Shown here piece by piece: positions 1-11,343 of a stretch of DNA of 64,000 nucleotides. The stretch is taken from contig JAXHUG010000025.1 of assembly GCA_034189785.1 (NCBI GenBank), positions 4,447 to 68,446 of the forward strand, in the 5' to 3' direction. Under the pieces are notes generated by a model, which had not been told where the DNA came from, made no database searches, and saw nothing but the letters and a program-made list of their open reading frames with translations. Position 1 is the stretch's first letter, and every line of letters starts with the position of its first letter. A program made the position numbers and the translations under genes. Source of the stretch: Actinomycetota bacterium (GTDB lineage Bacteria > Actinomycetota > Actinomycetes > Mycobacteriales > Mycobacteriaceae).

Positions 1-860
1 ACCAGCGTCTGCTCAAGATTGCGGTTGTAGCGCTTGAGCATGTCGGTGACCACCGCGAGGTTCGCCAGGGTCTGCGGCAGTGACCCGCGGACATCGCCGA
101 ACACGGCGTTGAGCTGATCGGCGGTGGGGGCGGCTTGCTCAAGGCCGCCGCGCAGCGCCTCGTCCTGGGCGGCTGACTGCGCAGCAAGGGTGTTGAGGTC
201 GGCCGCCCAGCGCTCGATAGCGTCCCCGGAATTCGTTTGGCTCTCGAGGATCGGCGCCGAGTTCACGATGAGGTCGTTGACCGCCGGCAGGTTGTCTTTG
301 AAACCCCGCGCCACGTTCGTCGTCGAGTCGACCAGTCGCTGCAATGCCGGACCCAGTCCGCCGACGGCAGTCGATGTCTCGGTGAGCAGGGAGTCGATCT
401 TGTCCTGGGGCAGCACGGCGAGTGCTCTGTTGGCGGCGTCGAGTGCGGGTCCCACCTCGCTGGGTACTGTGCTGTCGACGATGGTTTGCCCGTCGCGGTA
501 GTACTGGTCGGGGTTGCCGGTCGACACCAGGTCGAGGTATTGCTCGCCGATCGCCGAGACGGAGTGTACGTTCGCCGACGCGTCGATGGGAATCCTATAG
601 CCGCTGTCAATACTCATCTCGGCACGCGCGCCGTCATCGGTGGGTTCCACCGCGGTGACCTTGCCGATCTGTATGCCGCGGTAGGTGACGTTGGCGGTGT
701 CGTACAGGCCGCCGGACCGGGGCAGCTCCGCATACAGCGTGTACTGGCCGATGCCGAGCAGTGTGGGCACCCGCAGGTAGTACCAGCCCAACGCCACGAT
801 CGCGACGATCGTCAGAATGGTGAAAAGCACCAGCTGGATCTTGATGAAACGGGTCAGCAC
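1..860 (-). CDS. mce1F: MCE family protein Mce1F-like (3' end runs off the window)
   Basis: GTG at 860 reads MLTRFIKIQLVLFTILTIVAIVALGWYYLRVPTLLGIGQYTLYAELPRSGGLYDTANVTYRG, the Mce1F N-terminus. The frame stays open to base 1. Not in the ORF track because it has no stop in the window. Confidence 0.9.
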   Translation of the reverse strand, partial: MLTRFIKIQLVLFTILTIVAIVALGWYYLRVPTLLGIGQYTLYAELPRSGGLYDTANVTYRGIQIGKVTAVEPTDDGARAEMSIDSGYRIPIDASANVHSVSAIGEQYLDLVSTGNPDQYYRDGQTIVDSTVPSEVGPALDAANRALAVLPQDKIDSLLTETSTAVGGLGPALQRLVDSTTNVARGFKDNLPAVNDLIVNSAPILESQTNSGDAIERWAADLNTLAAQSAAQDEALRGGLEQAAPTADQLNAVFGDVRGSLPQTLANLAVVTDMLKRYNRNLEQTL

Positions 861-863
861 TGC

Positions 864-2051
864 TCACTCACCCCTTTCGACCAGCGGCCCGTTCGGGGCG
901 TCCAGGGGGTTCGGGGTGAACCGCACATCCGGGATCATGGTGGCCGGGTCGCGGCCCCAGGCCTGCTCGAGCGCGCGTAAGGCCCCGGAAAACCCGGTGC
1001 CGGTAAGCAGTGCGTTGTCCACCGTGGACAGGGTCAGGTCGATCGTCGCCGACACGTTGAGGTAGTCGCCGCGAACGATCTTCGGGACGTTCTCGATGGA
1101 GAAGGGCGCGGTCATGAGCAGTTTGAGCGCGCCGATCAGGTACGGCGACGCCTTGCCCAGCTGCTTGAGTGGGCGTTGCAGGCTGACCAGGTTCGTGTGC
1201 AGGTCGTCGCTGGCCGGCGCGAGTGCGTTGTCGGCCGCAACGCTGAGCCGGCCCAGCGCCTCGACGGCGTCGGCGAACAGATCGCGGGTGTCGGCGAAAT
1301 GCCGGATCAGCGGAGGGAATTCAGTGAGCACCCGGTCCAGGGTGTTGTTACGCTGCGCGACGATGGCCAGCAGCCGGTCGGTCGACTCGATCGCGCGGGC
1401 GATGTCGTGGCGCTGCTTGTTGAGTTCGTCGGTGAAGGTGTCCAACTGGTGGAGGAACTCGCGGACCTGGTCGGCGCGACCGGTCAGCGCATTGTCGATC
1501 TCGGTCTGGATCACCTCGAGGTTCGGAATGCCGCCGCCGGTCAAGACGGTGGCGATGCTGGCCTGTACGTGTTCGGTGGTGGGAAACGCCGAACTGTTTC
1601 GCAGCGGAATGGTGTCTCCGGTTTTCAGCAGTTGCGGTGAGGGCTGCGGTGGGAGATCCAGCTGCACGTGCTGGCTGCCCAGCAGGCTGGTCTGCCCGAT
1701 CCTGGCCAGCGCGTTCTCCGGCAGCGTGACGTCGGGCTGCAGGTCCAGGGTCAGGGTCGCGACCCAGTTCTTCAGCTCGATTGACCGCACCCGGCCGACA
1801 TAGACGTCGGCGACCCGTACCCGGCTGTTGACATTGAGCGCCAACGTGTTCGGCGTCTGCACGTAGACCGTCATCCGCTCTGCCCCGGTGCCCGGCCCGC
1901 CCGGCAGCGCGACATTGCCGATGCCAGCCCAGCTCCCGCACGAGGTGAGCACCGCCGCCACCGCGATGAAGGAGACGGTACGGCGGGCGATTGTGATCGC
2001 GCTGCGCCGCTTCATCGCGGTTCCTTTTCTGCGCGTCAGCAGCTCCATCAT
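864..2051 (-). CDS. mce1E: MCE family lipoprotein Mce1E/LprK-like
   Basis: Lipobox LTSC followed by GSWAGIGNVALPGGPGTG, then an MCE domain. ATG at 2051 overlaps the mce1D stop (ATGA); ATG at 2015 is an alternative start. Confidence 0.9.
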   Translation of the reverse strand: MMELLTRRKGTAMKRRSAITIARRTVSFIAVAAVLTSCGSWAGIGNVALPGGPGTGAERMTVYVQTPNTLALNVNSRVRVADVYVGRVRSIELKNWVATLTLDLQPDVTLPENALARIGQTSLLGSQHVQLDLPPQPSPQLLKTGDTIPLRNSSAFPTTEHVQASIATVLTGGGIPNLEVIQTEIDNALTGRADQVREFLHQLDTFTDELNKQRHDIARAIESTDRLLAIVAQRNNTLDRVLTEFPPLIRHFADTRDLFADAVEALGRLSVAADNALAPASDDLHTNLVSLQRPLKQLGKASPYLIGALKLLMTAPFSIENVPKIVRGDYLNVSATIDLTLSTVDNALLTGTGFSGALRALEQAWGRDPATMIPDVRFTPNPLDAPNGPLVERGE

Positions 2052-3682
2052 CCTGCTCCTGCTTCGGCCGGCAGTGGGGCAGGCCGCGGTCCGGCGGGGA
2101 CCGGTGCGGCCGCCACCGGCGGCGCGGTTGCTGTGAGTGGGTCGCCGGGTATCACCCCAGGGGCCGGGGCAGGTGGCGGCGCGGGTTGTGGGTACCACGG
2201 CGGCGGCAGCGGGTTGTTCTCGTCGTAGGCGTTCGGCGGGCCAGGCAGGTTCCCGCCGGGCGGCACCCCGAACGCGGGCGGTGCCGGCGGCGGCACGATG
2301 TCCGGGCCGCCCATCAGCTCCGCCAGCGAGTCGGGGGTGAGCATGTTGGCGGTGAACGGCTGCACCTCGACGCCCCGCATGCCGGGCGCGACGACCCATC
2401 CCGGTTCGTGGTTGCCGTGGCTGAACAAGGTGTCACGCGACCAGATCCCGGGCACGGTGGTGTCCTTGTATCCCGGCGGCGGTCGCAGCCGTTCCTCGGA
2501 GTAGGCGATCTGCTTGGGCAGCGTGCTCGCGGTGCTGATGGCATTGAAGCCGAAAGGGGGGAAGTTGAATTTGATCGCGTCGAGGATCGGCGCCAGATAC
2601 TGCGCGCACAGCTCGGCCGAGTCCTGGTAACCCAAGCGGCTGCCGGCCTGGATGGCGCTGCAGAGAAACTGCATGGGGTTGGCGAAGTTGGCGATCACCG
2701 GCAGACCGGAGAGATTGCTGTGCGTCGGTTCGTACATGTTCAGCACATTGGACCCGTAGGTCGGAACCACATGGAGGATGTTCTCCAGACCATCCTTGGG
2801 CTCGGGCTGCAGAATCGCGGTGGTGGCCTGGGCGAGGTTGTTGACGTCGTGGGTGAGCACGTCGCCGTTGTCGTCGAGGAACTGCCGGGTGGTCGACAGC
2901 AGTTGGTTCAGGTCGGTTAGGGCGGTGGCCAGTTCCTGGTCAGTGTTGGTGAACGCGTCGGTGAACTGCGCGAGGTCGTTATTGAGTGCGACGAACTGCT
3001 GATCACTTCGGTGTAGCGCGTTGACGAACAGTGCCAAACTCTTGATCACGCCGAACAGGTCGCCGCGGCCCTCGTTGAGGGTGTGCACCGCGTCGGACAG
3101 CGAACCCAGCGTCGTGTTGAGCTGCTCGCCCTTGCCGGCGAGTCCGTCTGCGGCCGATTCGACGATGTCGCCGAACGGACCCTTGGGCTGCTCGGGTGTC
3201 GGACCCAGGTCGGTCAGGATGCGGTTGATGGAGTCCCGCAGCTCGTCGTACTCGACCGGTACCTGGGTGCGGTCGATCGGGATCACCGCGTTGTCCTCCA
3301 TCACGGGCCCACCGGTGTAGGGCGGGGCCAGCTGGATGGCGCGCGACGCGACAAGGCTGGGGTTGAGGATCGATGCGGTGGCGTTGGCCGGGACCTTGTA
3401 CGTGCTTTCGTAGTGGAAGGTGACCTTGAGTTTGTCGCCGGCGGGTTCGATGCTGTCGATCGAACCGACCTTGACCCCCATGATCTGCACCCTGTCGCCC
3501 GAGTACAACGCCAGCGTGTCGGAGAAGTAGGCGACGACCGTGTTGGTGGTGAGCCTTTGATAAAGGTTCCACCCCATGAAGGCGGACACGACGGCCAGCA
3601 CCGCGATCAGTGTGCCGGTGATCACCGACGCGCGAGAAGCGTTGGGCAGCCGCAAGTTTCGCAGGTCAAAGATTGTTGACAT
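2048..3682 (-). CDS. mce1D: MCE family protein Mce1D-like, Pro-rich C-terminus
   Basis: 544-aa ORF starting MSTIFDLRNLRLP, with MCE domain motif GDRVQIMGVKVGSI; fourth gene of the operon. Confidence 0.92.
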   Translation of the reverse strand: MSTIFDLRNLRLPNASRASVITGTLIAVLAVVSAFMGWNLYQRLTTNTVVAYFSDTLALYSGDRVQIMGVKVGSIDSIEPAGDKLKVTFHYESTYKVPANATASILNPSLVASRAIQLAPPYTGGPVMEDNAVIPIDRTQVPVEYDELRDSINRILTDLGPTPEQPKGPFGDIVESAADGLAGKGEQLNTTLGSLSDAVHTLNEGRGDLFGVIKSLALFVNALHRSDQQFVALNNDLAQFTDAFTNTDQELATALTDLNQLLSTTRQFLDDNGDVLTHDVNNLAQATTAILQPEPKDGLENILHVVPTYGSNVLNMYEPTHSNLSGLPVIANFANPMQFLCSAIQAGSRLGYQDSAELCAQYLAPILDAIKFNFPPFGFNAISTASTLPKQIAYSEERLRPPPGYKDTTVPGIWSRDTLFSHGNHEPGWVVAPGMRGVEVQPFTANMLTPDSLAELMGGPDIVPPPAPPAFGVPPGGNLPGPPNAYDENNPLPPPWYPQPAPPPAPAPGVIPGDPLTATAPPVAAAPVPAGPRPAPLPAEAGAG

Positions 3683-3693
3683 CAGCTATCGTC

Positions 3694-5175
3694 CTATCCT
3701 TGCTGCGATCCTGGCGGCGCCGGCGGTAACGGAGCGATAGCCGGTGTGAAGTCCCGCGCGGAAGGCTGCGGAACCGTGCGCGCACCGGGCGGGCCGGGGG
3801 CCGTTGACGGTGGGGGCGCCCCTGGCACGTCGGGTGGCGGCTGGCCCGGGATCGCCGCGCCGGGTACACCCGGCGACGGCTGCGGACCATGCGCGTTTGG
3901 TGGCGAAGTCGCCACGTCCGGCGCCCCATGGCCACCGGGCAGCGGCCCGTACGGACCCTGGGTCAGACCGGCGCAGGGCAAGGGGTCCCCGGGACGCGGC
4001 AGGCCGTCGGGCGGCGGGGTGTACGAGCAGGGCGAACCGGGGGGCACAGCAGGGCCGGGATGCTCCGGTGTTCCCTCCAGCGGAGACGGCGCCGGCGGCG
4101 GCGCCCCGTTGGAGAACCTGTCGCCGTTGGGATCAGGGAACCGGAATGCCGGCAGGCCGGCGTTGCGCCAGAACTCCTCGGGGTCGATGCCGCGCTTCTT
4201 GAAGGCGGCGTCGACGAACGGCTGCAGGATCTGGTAGGGCAGCAGGTTGGCCAACAGCACTTTGAAGTAGGGCCCGGAGCCCAGCGCCTCGGCCAGCGAG
4301 GCGATGAAGCTGCTCACCGTGGTGAGCGCGTCTACCAGGTCGGTCTGGCGCGCAACCAGAATGCCGCTGACGGTGCGCAGCTGCTCAAGTACCCGGTTGA
4401 GGTTCGGGTTCTCGTCGATGAGGCCCCTCACCTGCTGTGATACCGCCGAAACCCGTTCGAGCAGCAGGTCGATCGCCTGGCCGCGGTCATTGATCGCGCC
4501 GAGCAATGCCTGCGCGTTGACCAATAGTGCGTTGATCTGCTCGCTGCGGTCACCCAGGACAGTGGCGATCTTGTTGGCGTTTGCCAACAGGTGTTTGATG
4601 TCGCCGTCGCGCTCGCCGATGGTGTCGGAGAACCGGGCCACCCCGTCAAGCGCGGCGCTCAGGTGGGGATAGGTTTGGTCGATCGTTTCCGACAGCACGT
4701 TCAGCGACCGCTTGACGGTCTGGGTATCCCAGCCCGAGGCCGCCTTGGTGAGGTCGAAGAACGCGTCGTAGATCTGATACGGCGTGGTGGTCTGCCCCAA
4801 TGGCAGCATGCCGTTGGCGCGCAGTGGTTGCGAGCCGCGTGGCTCGATCTGGATGTTACGCCGACCCAGGATGGTGTCGGTGCGGATCGCCGCCCGGCTT
4901 TCGGTGCCGATCCGGGTTCCACCCAGCGAGTAGCCGATCACGACCTTGTCGCCGTCGATGACCATCGACCGCACCGAGCCGAGGTCCACACCGGCGACGC
5001 GCACCTTGTCGCCGGTGTTGACGCCGCCGGTATCGGAGAACTCGGCGTAATACGTCGGCGTCGCGAACAGCACCGGCACGCCGACGAAACTCTGACCCAC
5101 CCCGACGACGAGGATGAGGATGATGATGCCCTTCAACCCGTTGCGAGCCCGGTTGGACCCCTCCAGCGTCCTCAT
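3694..5175 (-). CDS. mce1C: MCE family protein Mce1C-like
   Basis: Starts MRTLEGSN; contains RTDTILGR, TPYQIYDAFFD and a Pro-rich tail matching Mce1C. ATG overlaps the mce1B stop. Confidence 0.92.
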   Translation of the reverse strand: MRTLEGSNRARNGLKGIIILILVVGVGQSFVGVPVLFATPTYYAEFSDTGGVNTGDKVRVAGVDLGSVRSMVIDGDKVVIGYSLGGTRIGTESRAAIRTDTILGRRNIQIEPRGSQPLRANGMLPLGQTTTPYQIYDAFFDLTKAASGWDTQTVKRSLNVLSETIDQTYPHLSAALDGVARFSDTIGERDGDIKHLLANANKIATVLGDRSEQINALLVNAQALLGAINDRGQAIDLLLERVSAVSQQVRGLIDENPNLNRVLEQLRTVSGILVARQTDLVDALTTVSSFIASLAEALGSGPYFKVLLANLLPYQILQPFVDAAFKKRGIDPEEFWRNAGLPAFRFPDPNGDRFSNGAPPPAPSPLEGTPEHPGPAVPPGSPCSYTPPPDGLPRPGDPLPCAGLTQGPYGPLPGGHGAPDVATSPPNAHGPQPSPGVPGAAIPGQPPPDVPGAPPPSTAPGPPGARTVPQPSARDFTPAIAPLPPAPPGSQQG

Positions 5176-6203
5176 TGCGGCGTGCACCGACCTGACGGCT
5201 GCGAGGTGATCCTGACAGTGCGAACCGGGCCGCCGGGCTGCAAGCCGTTGAGCTGCAACGCGATATCGCAAATGTAGAAGTTGAAGAAGTCACCATAGAC
5301 GCCACCGGCGCGTCCGATGATCTTCAACGCGGACGGCACCCGGACAAGCAGGTCGTTGAGTTGCACCTGCTGGTCGATCAACGGCTGCTGGACACCCTCC
5401 AGATAGCCCACGGTGCTCTGCAGCAGCGGGCGGTTGTCGGCGAGCAGATCGCTCAGCGTGCCGGCGGCGTCGCTGAAGCCGGCGACCGAAGTGGCGATTG
5501 GGTCGGCCCGGTTCTTCAGGCCGGTGATCAGCGCCTCGAAATTCTGCAGGGTCTCATCGAACTGCTGCTGGTGTTTGACGGTCGTGTCGAGCACGGTGTT
5601 GAGATTGCGGATCACTTCACCGATGGCCTGGTCGCGATCGGCCAACGCAGTGGTGAGTGAGGCGGTCTGGTCGAGGATGTCGTTGAGGGTGCCGCCCTCG
5701 CCTTGAAAAATCGTCAGCAGCGACTGCGCGATGTTGTTGACCTTGGCCGGGTCCAGCGCCCGGAACACCGGCCGGAACCCGCCGATCAAGGCGTCGAGAT
5801 CGAGGGCGGGCTGGGTACGTTCGATCGGGATGGTGCCGCCACCGGACAACGGCTTGCCGCTATCGCCGCGAGTGAGTTCCATATAGCGGTCGCCGATCAG
5901 GTTCAGATAGCGGATCGAGGCCGTAGTGCCCTCGAACAGCGGCAACGAGCGGTCCACCCTGAAGTCGACCTTCGCCTGCGTTCCGCCGTTGATCAGTTCG
6001 ACCTTGGCGACCTTGCCGACCTCGACCCCCGACGCGCGCACGAACTGACCGGCTCGCAGGCCGCTGGCGTTGGAGAAGATGGCCGAGTACCCGGTGGTGC
6101 GGTTGAACCGCATCTGGCCGAACACCACGACGATGAGCGCGGTGAACAGCAGCAGCACCAGTGAGGCGGCGCCGAGCCTGAGGGCGGTACCGGTGATTTT
6201 CAT
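5172..6203 (-). CDS. mce1B: MCE family protein Mce1B-like
   Basis: Starts MKITGTALRLG; contains GLRAGQFVRASGVEVGKV and YLNLIGDRY. ATG overlaps the mce1A stop. Confidence 0.92.
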   Translation of the reverse strand: MKITGTALRLGAASLVLLLFTALIVVVFGQMRFNRTTGYSAIFSNASGLRAGQFVRASGVEVGKVAKVELINGGTQAKVDFRVDRSLPLFEGTTASIRYLNLIGDRYMELTRGDSGKPLSGGGTIPIERTQPALDLDALIGGFRPVFRALDPAKVNNIAQSLLTIFQGEGGTLNDILDQTASLTTALADRDQAIGEVIRNLNTVLDTTVKHQQQFDETLQNFEALITGLKNRADPIATSVAGFSDAAGTLSDLLADNRPLLQSTVGYLEGVQQPLIDQQVQLNDLLVRVPSALKIIGRAGGVYGDFFNFYICDIALQLNGLQPGGPVRTVRITSQPSGRCTPQ

Positions 6204-7414
6204 GGGTTGATCGTGTTCTCCCCGACCTGGCGCCCCCACACGTATTCGATCAGGAGCGGCTGGCCCAACTCGAAGTGGTTGTAGGGCGCGATCGTGGCCC
6301 CGTTGTCCATCACCAGGGCAGGAGCGGGCCACAGCTCGCGGGTGATCGGCTGCCAGCAGCCCGGCCGGCCTCCCGGACCACCGCGCGCGTTCACGCGCGG
6401 CAGGTTGTCCGGATACACATAGGGGTTCTCCGATCCCGTCAGAGATGCTGCAACGTTGATGGAGTAGCCGTTAAAGCCGCCCTCTGCCACTGCGACCTTG
6501 CGTTCGACGTCGTGAAAGTTGCGGACGGTGCAGAACAGCGCGGGACTGTACGTGTCCAGCAACTGCGAGGTAGGCACAAGATCTTCGGCCGCGCGGACCA
6601 GATACGGCCCGCCGCGCTCGAAGATGTCGGCGCCGGTGTTGCCGAAGCCGACCGCGGCCATCAATGCTTGGTCGAGATCGCCGCGCTGCCCGTTGAGCGT
6701 CTGCGCGGTGGTGGCGGCGTTCTCCAGTCCGTCGAACAGGTCCGGGGCGGCTGTGGCGTACACGTCGCCAAGGTCGGCCAGCAGTTGGTTGTCGCGCCGG
6801 ATCTGCGGCATCCGTGGGTTGAGGTCGGCGAGGATCGCGTTGCCGTCGACGATCGACTGCCCGAATCGGTCGCCCAGCCCGTCGAGGGCCTCGGCGGTGG
6901 CGGTCAGCGTCTGGTTGAGCTTGATCGGGTCGACCTTCTCGGCCACCGACACGATCGTTTCGAACAGCGTGTTGAACTCGGTGGTCACCGCCGTCACGTC
7001 GATGACGTCGGAGGGACTGATCCGCTCGGCCACAGGGCTTTTCGGCGACAAGAAGTTGACGTACTTGTTACCGAACACGGTGGTGGCGTCAACGCTGGCA
7101 TCGACGTTTCTGGGAATCAGCCCGAGGTATTTGGTGTCCACCGCCAGCGTGATCCTGGCTCGGGGTTCCTGCCCGATGGTGACCGCATCCACTGCGGCCA
7201 CGCGGCCGATCTCCACCCCGTTGTAGGTGACCTTGGCGCCGGGCTCCATCGACAAACCCGCGCGCGCACCCATCAAGGTGAGCTGCGTGCGATCGAGGAA
7301 CACTCCACGGAACTGCAGATAGACCAGGCCCAGCACGAGGGCGGCGACCAACGACAGCGCCAAGCCGGCCCGCTTGTACGACGGGATTCGGGGATCGTTG
7401 AGCGGCGCGGTCAT
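6200..7414 (-). CDS. mce1A: MCE family protein Mce1A-like
   Basis: 404 aa; contains GAKVTYNGVEIGRV and ATTVFGNKYV; ends EYVWGRQVGENTINP, typical of Mce1A. Confidence 0.92.
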   Translation of the reverse strand: MTAPLNDPRIPSYKRAGLALSLVAALVLGLVYLQFRGVFLDRTQLTLMGARAGLSMEPGAKVTYNGVEIGRVAAVDAVTIGQEPRARITLAVDTKYLGLIPRNVDASVDATTVFGNKYVNFLSPKSPVAERISPSDVIDVTAVTTEFNTLFETIVSVAEKVDPIKLNQTLTATAEALDGLGDRFGQSIVDGNAILADLNPRMPQIRRDNQLLADLGDVYATAAPDLFDGLENAATTAQTLNGQRGDLDQALMAAVGFGNTGADIFERGGPYLVRAAEDLVPTSQLLDTYSPALFCTVRNFHDVERKVAVAEGGFNGYSINVAASLTGSENPYVYPDNLPRVNARGGPGGRPGCWQPITRELWPAPALVMDNGATIAPYNHFELGQPLLIEYVWGRQVGENTINP

Positions 7415-7577
7415 GTCGCCACAGCCGAACCGGCTACGCGCTCAGGGGCGGATTCACCAGTGACCGAGAACGTGAACGACTCTGGGTTGGAAGGCGGCCC
7501 GGGAGGCCGCCGTCGCACCTTCACCATCAGACACTGCTTCACGGCATCGAGTGTCCATACAGCTCCAGTGCTTTACC

Positions 7578-7597
7578 TATGCGTAGAAGTACGCATA
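7578..7597. promoter_or_regulatory. 20-bp inverted repeat, candidate regulator binding site upstream of mce1A
   Basis: TATGCGTA-GAAG-TACGCATA, perfect 8-bp arms, intergenic, about 160 bp upstream of the mce1A start. Confidence 0.5.
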
Positions 7598-7626
7598 CCA
7601 AGGCGCGGTCAAATTTCAGGGGGTGG

Positions 7627-7725
7627 TGTATCGAGCCGAGTCGGCTTGTCCGGATCTTGGTCATGACGTCCGTCGAAGGAGCCGCGTCCGTGCCGAAGCG
7701 ATATCCCGAGGAGTTCCGCCGCAGG
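7627..7725 (+). mobile_element. IS3-family insertion sequence left-end remnant
   Basis: Begins TGTATCG (IS3-type TG end). RBS GAAGGAG precedes GTG at 7690 encoding MPKRYPEEFRRR, resembling an IS3 OrfA N-terminus. Similarity then stops and no right end is recognisable. Confidence 0.55.
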
Positions 7726-7868
7726 CGCGTCTACGACACCCCGGCCGCCCCGTGCAGCACCTACAGTGATCGACACACCATGCCATTCCGCGAGACCGGT
7801 TGCGCGGAAATGATATTCACATTCGCCGCCCACAATGGCGGGTCAAGGAATCACACGATGACCTTCGA

Positions 7869-8690
7869 TCACCCGGCTACGACACTGGACCTCATGTGAT
7901 CTGGCCGAGTTCGTGGTCCACCCCTGCTGGACGCAACCCCGGGGACTGTTTCGCGGTCTGTCGTGGTCGTGTGCAGCATTCCGAGCGACTGTGCCCGTCG
8001 TACGGCGAGGAGTCTGTCGTGTGCATCGAGCTTCCGGTAGAGGCTGCCGAGATGCTTGTGCACGGTCCGCTCGGAAACCTCCAGCCGCGCCGCGATCGAT
8101 CGGGCCAGAAGCCCCTCACTGAGCATCTCCAGCACCTCGTGTTCGCGGGCAGTGAGAGGCACGGTGCAGTCTTGCGGTGCGTCGGAGGGCGCGGCATGCC
8201 ACGGGAACAGGCGGTCGACGAGTGCCTCGATGAGCAGCAGCGCGGATCGGGAGCGCGCCAGCGCCTCGCTGTCGGAGTCCTCGAATGGCTGCTGCCGCTT
8301 CAGCACCATCAGACTCGGCGAGGCCGCGCTGGTGCGCAGCGGCAACTCGGCCAGGTGACCGGCGCCCAGCTTGTCATAAACGCGGCGTCTGGTGACGCTG
8401 ACGATCCACCATTCCTGCCCCGCCGGCACCGGGTTCTCCTGCTGGTGCTGCAGGACGGTGTGGGCCGACGAGTGTCTGGACCATGCGCACCAGCAGGCCT
8501 CGGTGGCGCCTCCCCGCAGATCGATGTAGCTGCCGGCATCAGCTTTCACAAGGTCGGCGCCAAACTGGCACAAGATCCTCAGGCCGTATGTCCGCGCCGA
8601 CGCACCGGCCTGGATGCCGAGCAGATCTTGTATGCACTCGAGTGCGGGTGCGGAAATCCTGTCCGCCGACCATTGTGGACCAGTCGCCAT
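7869..8690 (-). CDS. LuxR-family transcriptional regulator with N-terminal sensor-like region
   Basis: C-terminal LTAREHEVLEMLSEGLLARSIAARLEVSERTVHKHLGSLYRKL is a LuxR HTH. The start is uncertain and the N-terminal domain may itself be shortened. Confidence 0.8.
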   Translation of the reverse strand: MATGPQWSADRISAPALECIQDLLGIQAGASARTYGLRILCQFGADLVKADAGSYIDLRGGATEACWCAWSRHSSAHTVLQHQQENPVPAGQEWWIVSVTRRRVYDKLGAGHLAELPLRTSAASPSLMVLKRQQPFEDSDSEALARSRSALLLIEALVDRLFPWHAAPSDAPQDCTVPLTAREHEVLEMLSEGLLARSIAARLEVSERTVHKHLGSLYRKLDAHDRLLAVRRAQSLGMLHTTTTDRETVPGVASSRGGPRTRPDHMRSSVVAG

Positions 8691-8925
8691 CCCGAGCCTA
8701 AACCGTCGACCCGACTAGGCGTGCTGCCGGTTCGGCTGCCGCATCTCACCCTTGCCCGTCCTCACCGACAACCTCCCCGTCGACGGTCCCGACTTCCCCG
8801 GTAAACGCTACAACACCTCCCTCGAGAAGATGTCCGGTCCGCAGGATTGCCTCCATGCGACGAGCAATTCGCATGCAGCCGCACCATCAGGGAAGCCCTA
8901 CGCCTGACGAAACATGTCAAAGGTG

Positions 8926-9400
8926 ATGTCGCCGGTCGAGCGGCGCAGTCCCCCGGGTCGTCACGGATGTTCGCCTTCGGCGTAGTCACCACCCCGACGC
9001 GGGTGTCTACGACTCCGACCACCACACCGCGCCGGTCGTCGGTCTGGACGACGTGCGGCGCGCCCAGCACGTGGTGCGCGGCGTCCACATGGCTCCGGTA
9101 CTCGCGCAGTACTCGAGCCGCCTCGTCGAGGTGACGCGCCAACCCGACCAGTACCTGCCGAAGCAGATCGGGCGGTTCGTCTCCTGCGGGGCCAGTCCGC
9201 GCGCCACCATTGCGCTCTGTCAGGCCGCCCGCGCACGTGCCGTGCTGGCCGCGCGCGGACATGTGCTGCCGGAGGACATCGCCGCGGTGACCCACCGAGT
9301 CCTACGGCACCGGCTGATCCTCGGATTCGAGGCGGCCAACGCCGACGTCAGCGCGGACCGCGTCGTCGACGCCGTGCTGCAGGCCGTGCGGGTGCCCTGA
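8926..9400 (+). pseudogene. moxR: MoxR AAA+ ATPase remnant (C-terminal third only)
   Basis: DAGVYDSDHHTAPVVGLDDVRRAQ...GASPRATIALCQAARARAVLAARGHVLPEDIAAVTHRVLRHRLILGFEA is the MoxR C-terminal lid. No Walker A/B motif remains. A possible original ATG with RBS is at 8926. Confidence 0.8.
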
Positions 9401-9403
9401 CCC

Positions 9404-9635
9404 GTGGGCAAGCACCTCAACCGGGCGCGGGCGCACTTCGGCAAGGACACCCGCGGATTGCTCGACGGCGGACGGTACGCGCGGTTGCACACACGCAGCC
9501 CTCGCGGACAGCATCGTGGGCGCGGCCGCGCCGGTGCTCGCCGATCTGGGCGAGGCGCGGTTCGCCGACGAACCCCGCGCCGACGTCGGGCAACTCGGCG
9601 CCCGCGCGCAGGAGTTGGTGCGCACATGGACCTGA
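9404..9635 (+). pseudogene. DUF58 N-terminus fused out of frame to the C-terminus of the next operon gene
   Basis: MGKHLNRARAHFGKDTRGLLDGGRYARLHTRS resembles the DUF58 start in moxR operons. A frame switch follows into LADSIVGAAAPVLADLGEARF...AQELVRTWT*, whose stop overlaps the next ATG. Confidence 0.6.
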
Positions 9636-10696
9636 GGTGGTGGCCGATCGCGGTGATCGGATTGCTCAGCCTGCTGGTGTGTTTCGCGCTGGCGCTGCTG
9701 CGCCACTTCGCCCGGCAGGCCGGCACGTTCGAGAACGAGCGCATCGGGCTGACATCGCAGAACACCCGCAGATCAACGTGATCACTTCGGGTGAGGATGC
9801 AGCGCTGCGCGCACTGACCGAGCGGACCGACGGGCAATACGCGGTCTCGACAACGGAATCAGCCCTCACCGCAAGCCTGGATCAGATCGAGGGGCGCGAG
9901 GAGCGCCACCGCCACGACAGTGAAGATCGCGGCGCCCGCCTGGTGACGTTACGCCAGGCCCTCACCGCAACCGGCGCGCACCGCAGGAGCGCGCTGGCGC
10001 GTTGGGGGGGGCAATGACCCTCGCGGCCACCCTTCTACTCCTGGCCACCACCCGCCCGGCCCTCACGGCGAGCGGCCACGACGCCGGCGAGCGCGGGAGC
10101 GGCGCCGACACCAACGTATTCGTCGTACTCGACCGGACCGTGGACGCGCGGTCGGATATCGACGCGCTGCTCGACCGGTATCCCCAGGCCCGCTTCGCAG
10201 TGATCACGTTCGCGCCGGAGCCCACGCTCACGTGGCCGCTCTCGCGGGATGTGTGGAGCCTGCAGCCCGAGGTGGACGCGCTGACCGCCCTGCCGCCCGG
10301 CGACCCTGCTCTCGCCGATGCGGCCGCGCCGGTGCGGGCGCCCCCGGCGCGTCCACCGCCCAGGGTGATATCGACTTTCCGGCCGATTCGGTAAGCGGGG
10401 GAGCGGTGCTGGGTCACTCCGCCGACGGCGCGATCGACGAGGCGTCGCTGCGTCGCATCGCCGGCGACCTCGGGGTGGCGTACTTCGACCGGAGAGCCGG
10501 CGGTGCTCTCGCGCCGCTCGAGACCCGCCCGGATGCGGCCGAGGCGACCGACCCCGTCCCCGCCGCGGCGGGTACCGAGCTGTACTGGCTGCTCTGCCTG
10601 CTGGCCGCGGGCCTGCTGCTCGGCGAGATCTGGCTCAGCGTGCGGGAAGTGCGGTTCCCGGCGCTGGATGCGGCGCTGAACACATTTGCTGAATGA
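9626..10696 (+). pseudogene. Two fused and fragmented vWA-domain (BatA/BatB-like) genes
   Basis: Pieces in different frames: MDLRWWPIAVIG, FENERIGLTSQN, QINVITSGEDAALRALTERTDGQY, TNVFVVLDRT (MIDAS-like strand), DALLDRYPQARFAVITFA, AIDEASLRRIAGDLGVAYF and TELYWLLCLLAAGLLLGEI. Confidence 0.7.
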
Positions 10697-10728
10697 CATT
10701 CGCACGAATCGGGTACCTAGTACGCATT

Positions 10729-11343
10729 ATGAGTTCGTCGAGTCTCCAGCCAGACGGGGCCACCCTGCGTTTCCACCGCATGGCCGCGGCCGACGCGCAT
10801 GCCGTGGCCCGCCTGCGGGAAGAGTTCACGCGCTGGCTCGCCGAGGAGTTCGAGCTCGACGACGTCCGCTCGAGCGACATCGTGCTGGTCGTCAACGAAG
10901 CACTGTCCAACGCCGCCGAGTTCGCCTACCCCGATCGTGAGGTGGGTGACAACATCACCCTGCAGGGCTCCTACGCGGTTGACACCGGTACGCTGGCCAT
11001 CACCGTCGCCGATCGCGGCCGGTGGCGCGGGAGTGACACGTCCAACCAGAAGCGCTCCCGCGGACGCGGCATCCCGCTGATGCGGGCGCTGGGCGACCGG
11101 GTCGACATCGACAAGACACCGCAGGGCACCCAGGTGCACCTGTACTTCGACCGCTGCCAGCGCCGTGCTCCGGTACAGGTCGAGGCGGCCGCCCCGTTTC
11201 CCGCAGTCCGACATCGTCTACGACACGGCACAACGACTACAACACAGCACAACGACTACTACCACAACGACTACGACACAGCACAACCCGCGCCGACCTC
11301 CACGGTGCGGGGCTGGGAGAGATTACGGATCGTCCTGAGATGA
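10729..11343 (+). CDS. RsbW-like anti-sigma factor / Ser-Thr kinase (HATPase_c_2) with aberrant C-terminal extension
   Basis: DIVLVVNEALSNAAEFAY (N box), TVADRG (G1), SRGRGIPLMRAL (G2), GTQVHL. About 50 aa after the domain come from a tandem repeat and amidase-remnant DNA. Confidence 0.82.
   Translation: MSSSSLQPDGATLRFHRMAAADAHAVARLREEFTRWLAEEFELDDVRSSDIVLVVNEALSNAAEFAYPDREVGDNITLQGSYAVDTGTLAITVADRGRWRGSDTSNQKRSRGRGIPLMRALGDRVDIDKTPQGTQVHLYFDRCQRRAPVQVEAAAPFPAVRHRLRHGTTTTTQHNDYYHNDYDTAQPAPTSTVRGWERLRIVLR
11218..11289 (+). repeat. A/C-rich 19-bp minisatellite, about 4 copies
   Basis: Units ctacgacacggcacaacga / ctacaacacagcacaacga / ctactaccacaacga (15 bp) / ctacgacacagcacaaccc. Confidence 0.85.

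Follow-up and report, generated by a model that had tools for sequence, protein, structure and literature searches.

A conserved mce1-type gene cassette without permease genes in a small-genome mycobacterium, and its possible role as an alternative MCE hexamer

The window analyzed here is a stretch of 64,000 nucleotides (G000:C39:4447-68446, where G000 is the source genome and C39 its contig), and the subject of this work is the cassette of six mce genes, without adjoining yrbE permease genes, that lies at its start. Mycobacteria import lipids and sterols mainly through Mce transporters, and the textbook mce unit consists of eight genes, two for permeases and six for Mce proteins. The source genome comprises 3.6 Mb in 120 contigs, with 68% G+C and a completeness rating of 100%, and the host is an environmental Mycobacterium with a small genome. 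Between positions 1 and 8690, seven genes were found on the minus strand, namely, the six mce genes and one gene for a GerE/LuxR-family regulator. Both the MlaD and the Mce4_CUP1 domains were detected by profile search in 6/6 Mce proteins, and the subunit order A to F was supported by the best matches to canonical operons.

The product of mceA (7414..6200, 404 amino acids) aligned end to end with M. smegmatis Mce1A (8FED chain A; E = 4.9e-193). The ATG of mceB (6203..5172, 343 amino acids) overlaps the mceA stop codon, and mceC (5175..3694) encodes 493 amino acids if translation starts at the ATG overlapping the mceB stop codon; gene callers on related contigs choose an upstream start, giving 521 amino acids. 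The next genes are mceD (3682..2048), for a protein of 544 amino acids with a proline-rich C-terminal tail, and mceE (2051..864), for the lipoprotein subunit with the lipobox LTSC. An N-terminal hydrophobic helix was found in MceA to MceD and in MceF. The A/B, B/C, and D/E junctions are ATGA overlaps, and the C/D and E/F gaps measure 11 and 3 nucleotides, respectively; the earlier description of the genes as translationally coupled therefore holds. That description had also called all six genes intact, which needs amendment for mceF (860..<1), as only the first 286 of its 516 codons lie in the window; on the contig the open reading frame is complete and ends at C39:3756. About 60 bp from the 3' end of mceF lies a convergent mmpL gene, preceded by mmpS.

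The arrangement is not confined to one genome. In a sister species (G005; 4.0 Mb, one contig), the order LuxR gene, gap, mceABCDEF, and convergent mmpL is also present, with a nucleotide identity of 92.8% and amino acid identities of 91-95% over the cassette (93% for MceF). Four metagenome contigs from different samples (L143-L146) keep the cassette layout at 97-98% nucleotide identity, and neither a stop codon nor a frameshift was found across about 7.9 kb in any of the three lineages. The cassette layout predates the species split (synonymous divergence, dS, of about 0.19). The ratio of nonsynonymous to synonymous substitution (dN/dS) against the sister species ranged per gene from 0.10 to 0.29 at dS values of 0.14-0.25, with individual ratios of 0.16 for mceA, 0.10 for mceB, 0.24 for mceC, 0.18 for mceD, and 0.29 for mceE. 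For the concatenated cassette it was 0.175 (bootstrap, 0.144-0.209), far from the value near 1 that the original prediction had named as speaking against it. The same species pair gave 0.241 (0.206-0.277) for the resident canonical mce1 operon described below, and purifying selection on the cassette is at least as strong as on that operon. Family-invariant positions were defined as those conserved to at least 95% across 70 canonical mce1-type operons, and the orphan pair formed by the cassette and its sister ortholog retains 1262/1303 of them (97%). Shared departures at such positions numbered 41 in the orphan pair versus 13 in the resident pair.

Next to the cassette, positions 8691..10692 hold the decayed remnants of a MoxR(AAA)-DUF58 cluster, recognized as patchwork blastn matches to genes intact in the sister species; only an AAA_lid_2 fragment remains. 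In the sister species (L021:4246-8804) and on L143-L146, this cluster of 5-6 genes is still intact. These remnants flank the locus and lie outside the cassette. Gene loss is thus seen to be ongoing right beside the cassette, which stayed intact.

The gap between mceA and the LuxR-family gene is 455 bp long. No similarity to YrbE/MlaE was found by blastn, tblastx, or tblastn in this gap, in the 2 kb beyond the LuxR-family gene, or elsewhere on C39, which bears out the original prediction that yrbEA and yrbEB are missing above mceA. In other species, yrbEA and yrbEB directly precede mceA in all of the approximately 80 mce1-type loci with upstream sequence. Nine loci (L109-L117) that first seemed to be without yrbE proved to carry a lone orphan mceA each, of the kind known as oMce1A, which is discussed below. 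The literature describes mce genes as "almost always" preceded by a permease pair (Casali and Riley 2007, PMC1810536). Measured against the mce operon definition of that paper, the six mce genes and mceG are present, whereas the upstream yrbE pair and the downstream mas/mam genes, which are usual rather than universal, are missing.

Within the source genome, only four matches to MlaE (YrbE) were found, as two pairs on C53 and C108, and the 18 MCE genes form three clusters; each yrbEAB pair precedes its own six mce genes. The operon on C108 is a separate canonical mce1, as the original prediction had proposed to check, and is referred to as the resident operon; its subunits are 72-80% identical to those of the cassette. 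The third cluster (C53:31174-40845) is a canonical mce1/2-like operon that is 56-65% identical to the cassette and adjoins infC-rpmI-rplT; it is missing from the sister species, where only two MlaE matches were found. The ATPase gene mceG is single-copy (C55:113241-114377), lies beside rplL, and matches 8FED chain G with 618 bits (E = 3.6e-185). In the sister species, a single yrbEAB pair accompanies 12 mce genes. Since the cassette has no permease genes of its own, the permease and the ATPase are most likely shared with another Mce transporter.

The upstream region falls into two parts. The segment next to mceA (7415..7665, minus strand) is a conserved leader/promoter region, about 90-95% identical in the sister species and the metagenome contigs; the remainder of the gap (7666-7868) is not conserved and is full of indels between lineages. 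The palindrome predicted above mceA was recovered in the conserved part as a perfect, operator-like repeat of the form TATGCGTA-N4-TACGCATA (7578..7597; TATGCGTA-CTTC-TACGCATA), just downstream of a TTGACC hexamer. It occurs once in the 3.6-Mb genome and is identical in the sister species and the four metagenome contigs. A GC-rich hairpin, GGCGGCC-N5-GGCCGCC (7485..7519, minus strand), lies in the putative 5' untranslated region, and its stem is conserved in the sister species. An insertion sequence stub had also been claimed for the gap. The gap is single-copy, its blastn and tblastx matches are to orthologs only, and its six frames have no Pfam match; the stub is therefore unsupported. The leader showed no similarity to canonical mce1 upstream regions, and inheritance from a canonical mce1 promoter was rejected. 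No Rfam match at E <= 1 indicated a riboswitch or other known RNA in the leader, and a scan of the upstream region for sigma-70-type promoters and intrinsic terminators returned none, a scan that is uninformative for mycobacterial promoters. From the sequence comparison, the cassette appears to have acquired a novel, conserved promoter region whose operator-like palindrome is unique.

The gene beyond the gap (8690..7869, minus strand) encodes a LuxR-family regulator of 273 amino acids with a GAF-like N-terminal domain and a C-terminal GerE helix-turn-helix (PF00196, E = 2.1e-17); its dN/dS against the sister species was 0.34. A model built from 51 homologs (predicted local distance difference test score, pLDDT, of 84) suggested an alpha/beta/alpha N-terminal domain joined to the helix-turn-helix. 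The best fold matches by Foldseek were QscR, RhlR, LasR, TraR, and SdiA (lowest E value, 2.5e-8), and GAF domains came next. The solved receptors were 12-18% identical in sequence, and the whole-chain TM-scores were low (0.25-0.35) because the domain orientation differs. The sensor proposed for this position is present beside the cassette with a predicted two-domain fold like that of ligand receptors, and a ligand-sensing LuxR receptor is a fair description of what the modeled protein looks like. Full-length orthologs were found only in cassette-carrying lineages. More distant homologs (62-66% identity, e.g., in Mycolicibacterium sp. XJ662) have an S8 peptidase gene, not mce, about 50-70 bp downstream. 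At L140:10001-20759, L141, and L142, such homologs head a same-strand, conserved cluster of an S8 peptidase, six large genes without Pfam matches, and a phage-lysozyme-domain protein. The palindrome is absent near the distant homologs, so no operator assignment is possible, and its interpretation as a conserved operator of this LuxR family was rejected. By its adjacency, the LuxR protein is a candidate regulator of the cassette, a role that is possible although we lean against it.

The origin of the cassette was deduced from concatenated MceA-F trees (2561 columns; 76 loci by FastTree and 38 loci by IQ-TREE), both of which placed it inside the mce1-type clade. The orphan pair branches off basally in a clade that includes the mce1 operons of M. 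elephantis, M. celeriflavum, and M. austroafricanum, among others; the resident operon and its sister ortholog fall elsewhere, with the mce1 operons of M. litorale, M. hippocampi, and their relatives. All six cassette genes have one common phylogenetic history, distinct from that of the resident operon. A recent tandem or segmental duplication of the resident mce1 was rejected, as the forced grouping cost 180 units of log likelihood (delta lnL 180; approximately unbiased test, p = 1.8e-5). The G+C content at third codon positions was 0.83-0.88 in the cassette genes, slightly lower than the 0.88-0.92 of the resident operon. The genes that usually flank mce1 (TetR, SDR, a small open reading frame, and four mas genes) match C108, not the window, and the flanks found in the window (mmpSL, LuxR, and rhomboid) lie near no canonical mce1 locus. 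Deletion of yrbEAB in situ was rejected as well, in that blastn, tblastx, and tblastn found no remnant and the site differs from the mce1 site. Placement in another clade and at a nonsyntenic site therefore leaves two origins: the cassette is either a horizontally acquired copy or an old paralog of a mce1-type operon, moved or copied without the permease genes. Since it descends from a canonical mce1-type operon, the yrbE genes were lost or left behind at some point.

The orphan stem is long (0.18-0.20). Measured from the clade base, the whole path is about 0.24, within the range of 0.11-0.25 for canonical operons, and thus gives no sign of a burst of change following permease loss; accelerated evolution was rejected, and the long stem reflects missing close relatives. 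In an empty-site comparison through the mmpL orthologs of two further genomes (G015 and G001), the neighborhoods were rearranged with weak synteny and yielded no insertion limits. The resident mce1 (at C108:13308-13791) and its sister ortholog are themselves without mce1R (GntR) and fadD5, genes that lie ahead of yrbE1A in M. litorale, M. elephantis, G001, and G024; the flanking TetR/SDR genes and four mas genes are retained. At a nonsyntenic site, G001 also has another complete mce1-type operon (yrbEAB, mceA-F, and mas; L023, G001:C1:3509000-3528000), and its grouping with mce1 operons from other species suggests duplication or transfer of a whole operon.

Permease-less clusters were also sought across the genus by comparing MlaD and MlaE counts in 121 genomes, of which about 57 were informative (MlaD <41, MlaE <22). 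At least six MCE genes above three times the YrbE count were found in seven of these (G000, G005, G024, G045, G064, G096, and G101). The absence of yrbE from the further clusters was assessed by position mapping and tblastn over 18 kb around each, with G101 left out. Five six-gene clusters without yrbE were obtained: G024:C1:5078602-5084617 (locus L147, G024:C1:5074000-5092000), G045:C2:496377-502919 (locus L148, G045:C2:488000-506000), the pair G064:C8:32487-38667 and G064:C25:69103-75150 (L149/L150), and G096:C1:56958-63073 (locus L151, G096:C1:53000-71000). With the source genome and the sister species included, permease-less six-gene clusters were confirmed in 6 of the approximately 57 genomes. 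The G045 cluster is mce1/2-like and about 60% identical to the cassette; the other four are of another type, at 33-40%, and canonical operons of that type (about 52-54% MceA identity) are present in G024, G045, G064, and G096. Among the neighbors of the five clusters were rnhB-lepB-rplS, a P450 with a luciferase-like monooxygenase, an AveC-like gene with a P450, an aldehyde dehydrogenase, and a TetR gene, and the clusters have no membrane-protein neighbor in common. A full-text search of the literature for mce clusters lacking yrbE found no description of them. The reverse imbalance was observed in one genome (G122; 3.3 Mb, one contig), where five MlaE matches against six MCE matches look like permease remnants after mce loss in a reduced genome.

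Several known systems provide a frame for the interpretation. The cassette resembles the M. smegmatis Mce1 transporter (8FED/8FEE/8FEF) in its six MCE genes, their A-F order, their domain plan, and an mceG gene next to ribosomal-protein genes; it differs in being without yrbEA/yrbEB, mas/mam, GntR (Mce1R), and fadD5, in its nonsyntenic site, and in its unrelated promoter region. M. tuberculosis mce2, a close mce1 paralog, is also without downstream mam genes (PMC13492129) but retains yrbE2A/B and the GntR regulator Mce2R, and orthology of the cassette to mce2 is not claimed. The closest precedent for the sharing of a motor is oMce1A (MSMEG_6540), which is likewise Mce1-type and encoded away from permease genes. 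It is 80-84% identical to Mce1A, with which it competes, copurifies with YrbE1B and MceG, and accounts for most palmitate uptake in M. smegmatis, where a 60% identical Mce1A paralog fails to copurify (PMC9882608, PMC10517005). The earlier statement that an orphan Mce1A paralog can join the M. smegmatis Mce1 complex is confirmed by these two papers. Whereas oMce1A is one gene for one subunit, the cassette has six genes at 72-80% identity and could replace the entire hexamer. The source genome has no single orphan mceA, and the cassette does not fall under the single-gene description of oMce1A.

From these data we hypothesize that the six proteins would assemble their own MceA-F heterohexamer, a ring with a helical tunnel like that of the M. 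smegmatis Mce1 complex, and that this hexamer would dock on a YrbEA/B pair encoded elsewhere, most likely the resident YrbE1AB, together with the single MceG. With a YrbE/MceG encoded elsewhere, it would thus serve a shared ABC (ATP-binding cassette) motor as a second, alternative "needle," probably with another lipid substrate range or other expression conditions. Its ancestor would have been a canonical mce1-type operon from a different lineage of Mycolicibacterium, or else an old paralog, which would have arrived or been moved without yrbEAB and the mas genes and then gained the new promoter region. The original prediction of an exchangeable module is consistent with these results, in that the genes are intact and under selection, no permease is encoded with them, and the genomes hold one mceG and one or two yrbEAB pairs elsewhere; for the docking itself we have only inference. 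Overall, a functional permease-less mce1-type cassette, encoding an alternative MCE hexamer that shares YrbE/MceG, is favored with slightly better than even confidence; the data show its anatomy, conservation, selection, phylogeny, lack of a permease, and gene inventory, and assembly, docking, substrate, and regulation are what we infer.

Several observations weigh against this interpretation. The purifying selection indicates that the proteins matter and is silent on whether they work through YrbE/MceG. The N-terminal membrane helices, where contacts with the permease are expected, showed no extra conservation that would be a sign of a shared permease (51-83%, no better than the remainder), and lineage-specific departures at family-invariant positions were slightly commoner in these segments (5/86) and in the C-terminal tails (16/403, with nine in MceF), an enrichment that was not significant in either case. 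Since the convergent mmpS-mmpL pair follows mceF directly, the cassette has no mas/mam genes; none were found on the contig downstream of mceF, and mas homologs sit behind the C108 and C53 operons. Furthermore, the identity of 72-80% to the resident subunits falls between that of the M. smegmatis paralogs that join the complex (80-84%) and that do not (60%).

An identity of 72-80% would also fit proteins that mix singly with the resident Mce1A-F to give chimeric hexamers on YrbE1AB. Such a pool of subunits would follow the sole orphan Mce case shown experimentally, which is a single-subunit swap, and single orphan mceA genes are common in relatives (L109-L117). The six genes, however, stand together, are coupled and co-conserved in three lineages, and share a phylogenetic history distinct from that of the resident operon, all of which is a better fit to a co-assembling set, and singly mixing subunits were judged unlikely. 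A function independent of any YrbE permease, as a passive lipid conduit or an envelope or adhesion structure held in place by its own membrane helices, or as the partner of an unrelated membrane protein, was considered on the grounds that no permease, ATPase, or mas gene is linked to the cassette, that an mmpS-mmpL pair always adjoins it in the three lineages, and that Gram-negative MCE proteins without ABC partners exist (PMC10517005). The mmpL gene is convergent, though, and in G015 and G001 its orthologs stand without an adjacent mce cassette; no membrane-protein neighbor is common to the five other yrbE-less cassettes, and the actinobacterial Mce systems studied so far all depend on YrbE and MceG. 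In E. coli, PqiB and LetB are MCE tunnels that use PqiA and LetA instead of an ABC transporter, and the cassette resembles PqiABC and LetAB in having MCE-domain tunnels without linked MlaE/MlaF-type genes. Those systems differ in being homohexamers of multi-MCE-domain proteins with the dedicated partners PqiA and LetA, and no such partner was seen beside the cassette. Permease-independent function was accordingly regarded as quite improbable.

The original prediction had offered, as its own alternative, an operon decapitated by deletion, that is, a functionless relic that lost its permease and is heading for decay. The cassette must descend from an eight-gene operon, it sits in a small genome (3.6 Mb) next to MoxR-DUF58 genes in visible decay, and the resident mce1 has itself lost mce1R and fadD5. 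Against this stand the reading frames free of stops and frameshifts, the low dN/dS with an upper bootstrap bound of 0.21, the retained family-invariant positions, and the conserved 250-bp leader; when relatives were compared at this position, as had been suggested, none carried yrbEAB there. With the genes intact, the layout kept since before the species split, dN/dS low, and 97% of the invariant positions in place, the cassette is therefore not a decaying, recently decapitated operon. A recent or decaying event of this kind was rejected, and a functionless relic was deemed extremely improbable.

If the cassette is indeed an alternative hexamer on a shared motor, its significance lies in what sets Mce substrate specificity and how far Mce parts exchange. 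To our knowledge, the only exchange case that has been tested is that of a single orphan Mce1A subunit, and a complete, selected six-gene set without a permease suggests that the whole periplasmic tunnel may be a swappable module on a shared motor. More tentatively, and at somewhat less than an even chance, whole needles may be swapped: two MceA-F hexamers would compete for one YrbEAB-MceG motor, the second being switched on by its own operator, possibly via LuxR, and permease-less cassettes, which often lie beside genes for a P450, a monooxygenase, or an aldehyde dehydrogenase, would offer mycobacteria a general, modular route to a wider substrate range for a few ABC motors. If so, the clearest example in nature would be the sister species, in which one yrbEAB pair stands against 12 mce genes; having two hexamer sets for one permease pair and one ATPase, that species is also a simple test system. 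In some genomes, a count of mce operons that goes by the Mce genes comes out higher than the number of complete transporters.

Farther into the window, beyond the MoxR-DUF58 remnants, positions 10693-11343 encode a HATPase_c_2 anti-sigma-factor-like protein. On related contigs (L143:1349-3817 and L144:1506-3938), the HATPase_c_2 gene sits with a STAS protein in a partner-switching module. The third partner-switching gene encodes a SpoIIE phosphatase in L144, and its counterpart in L143 has no Pfam match.

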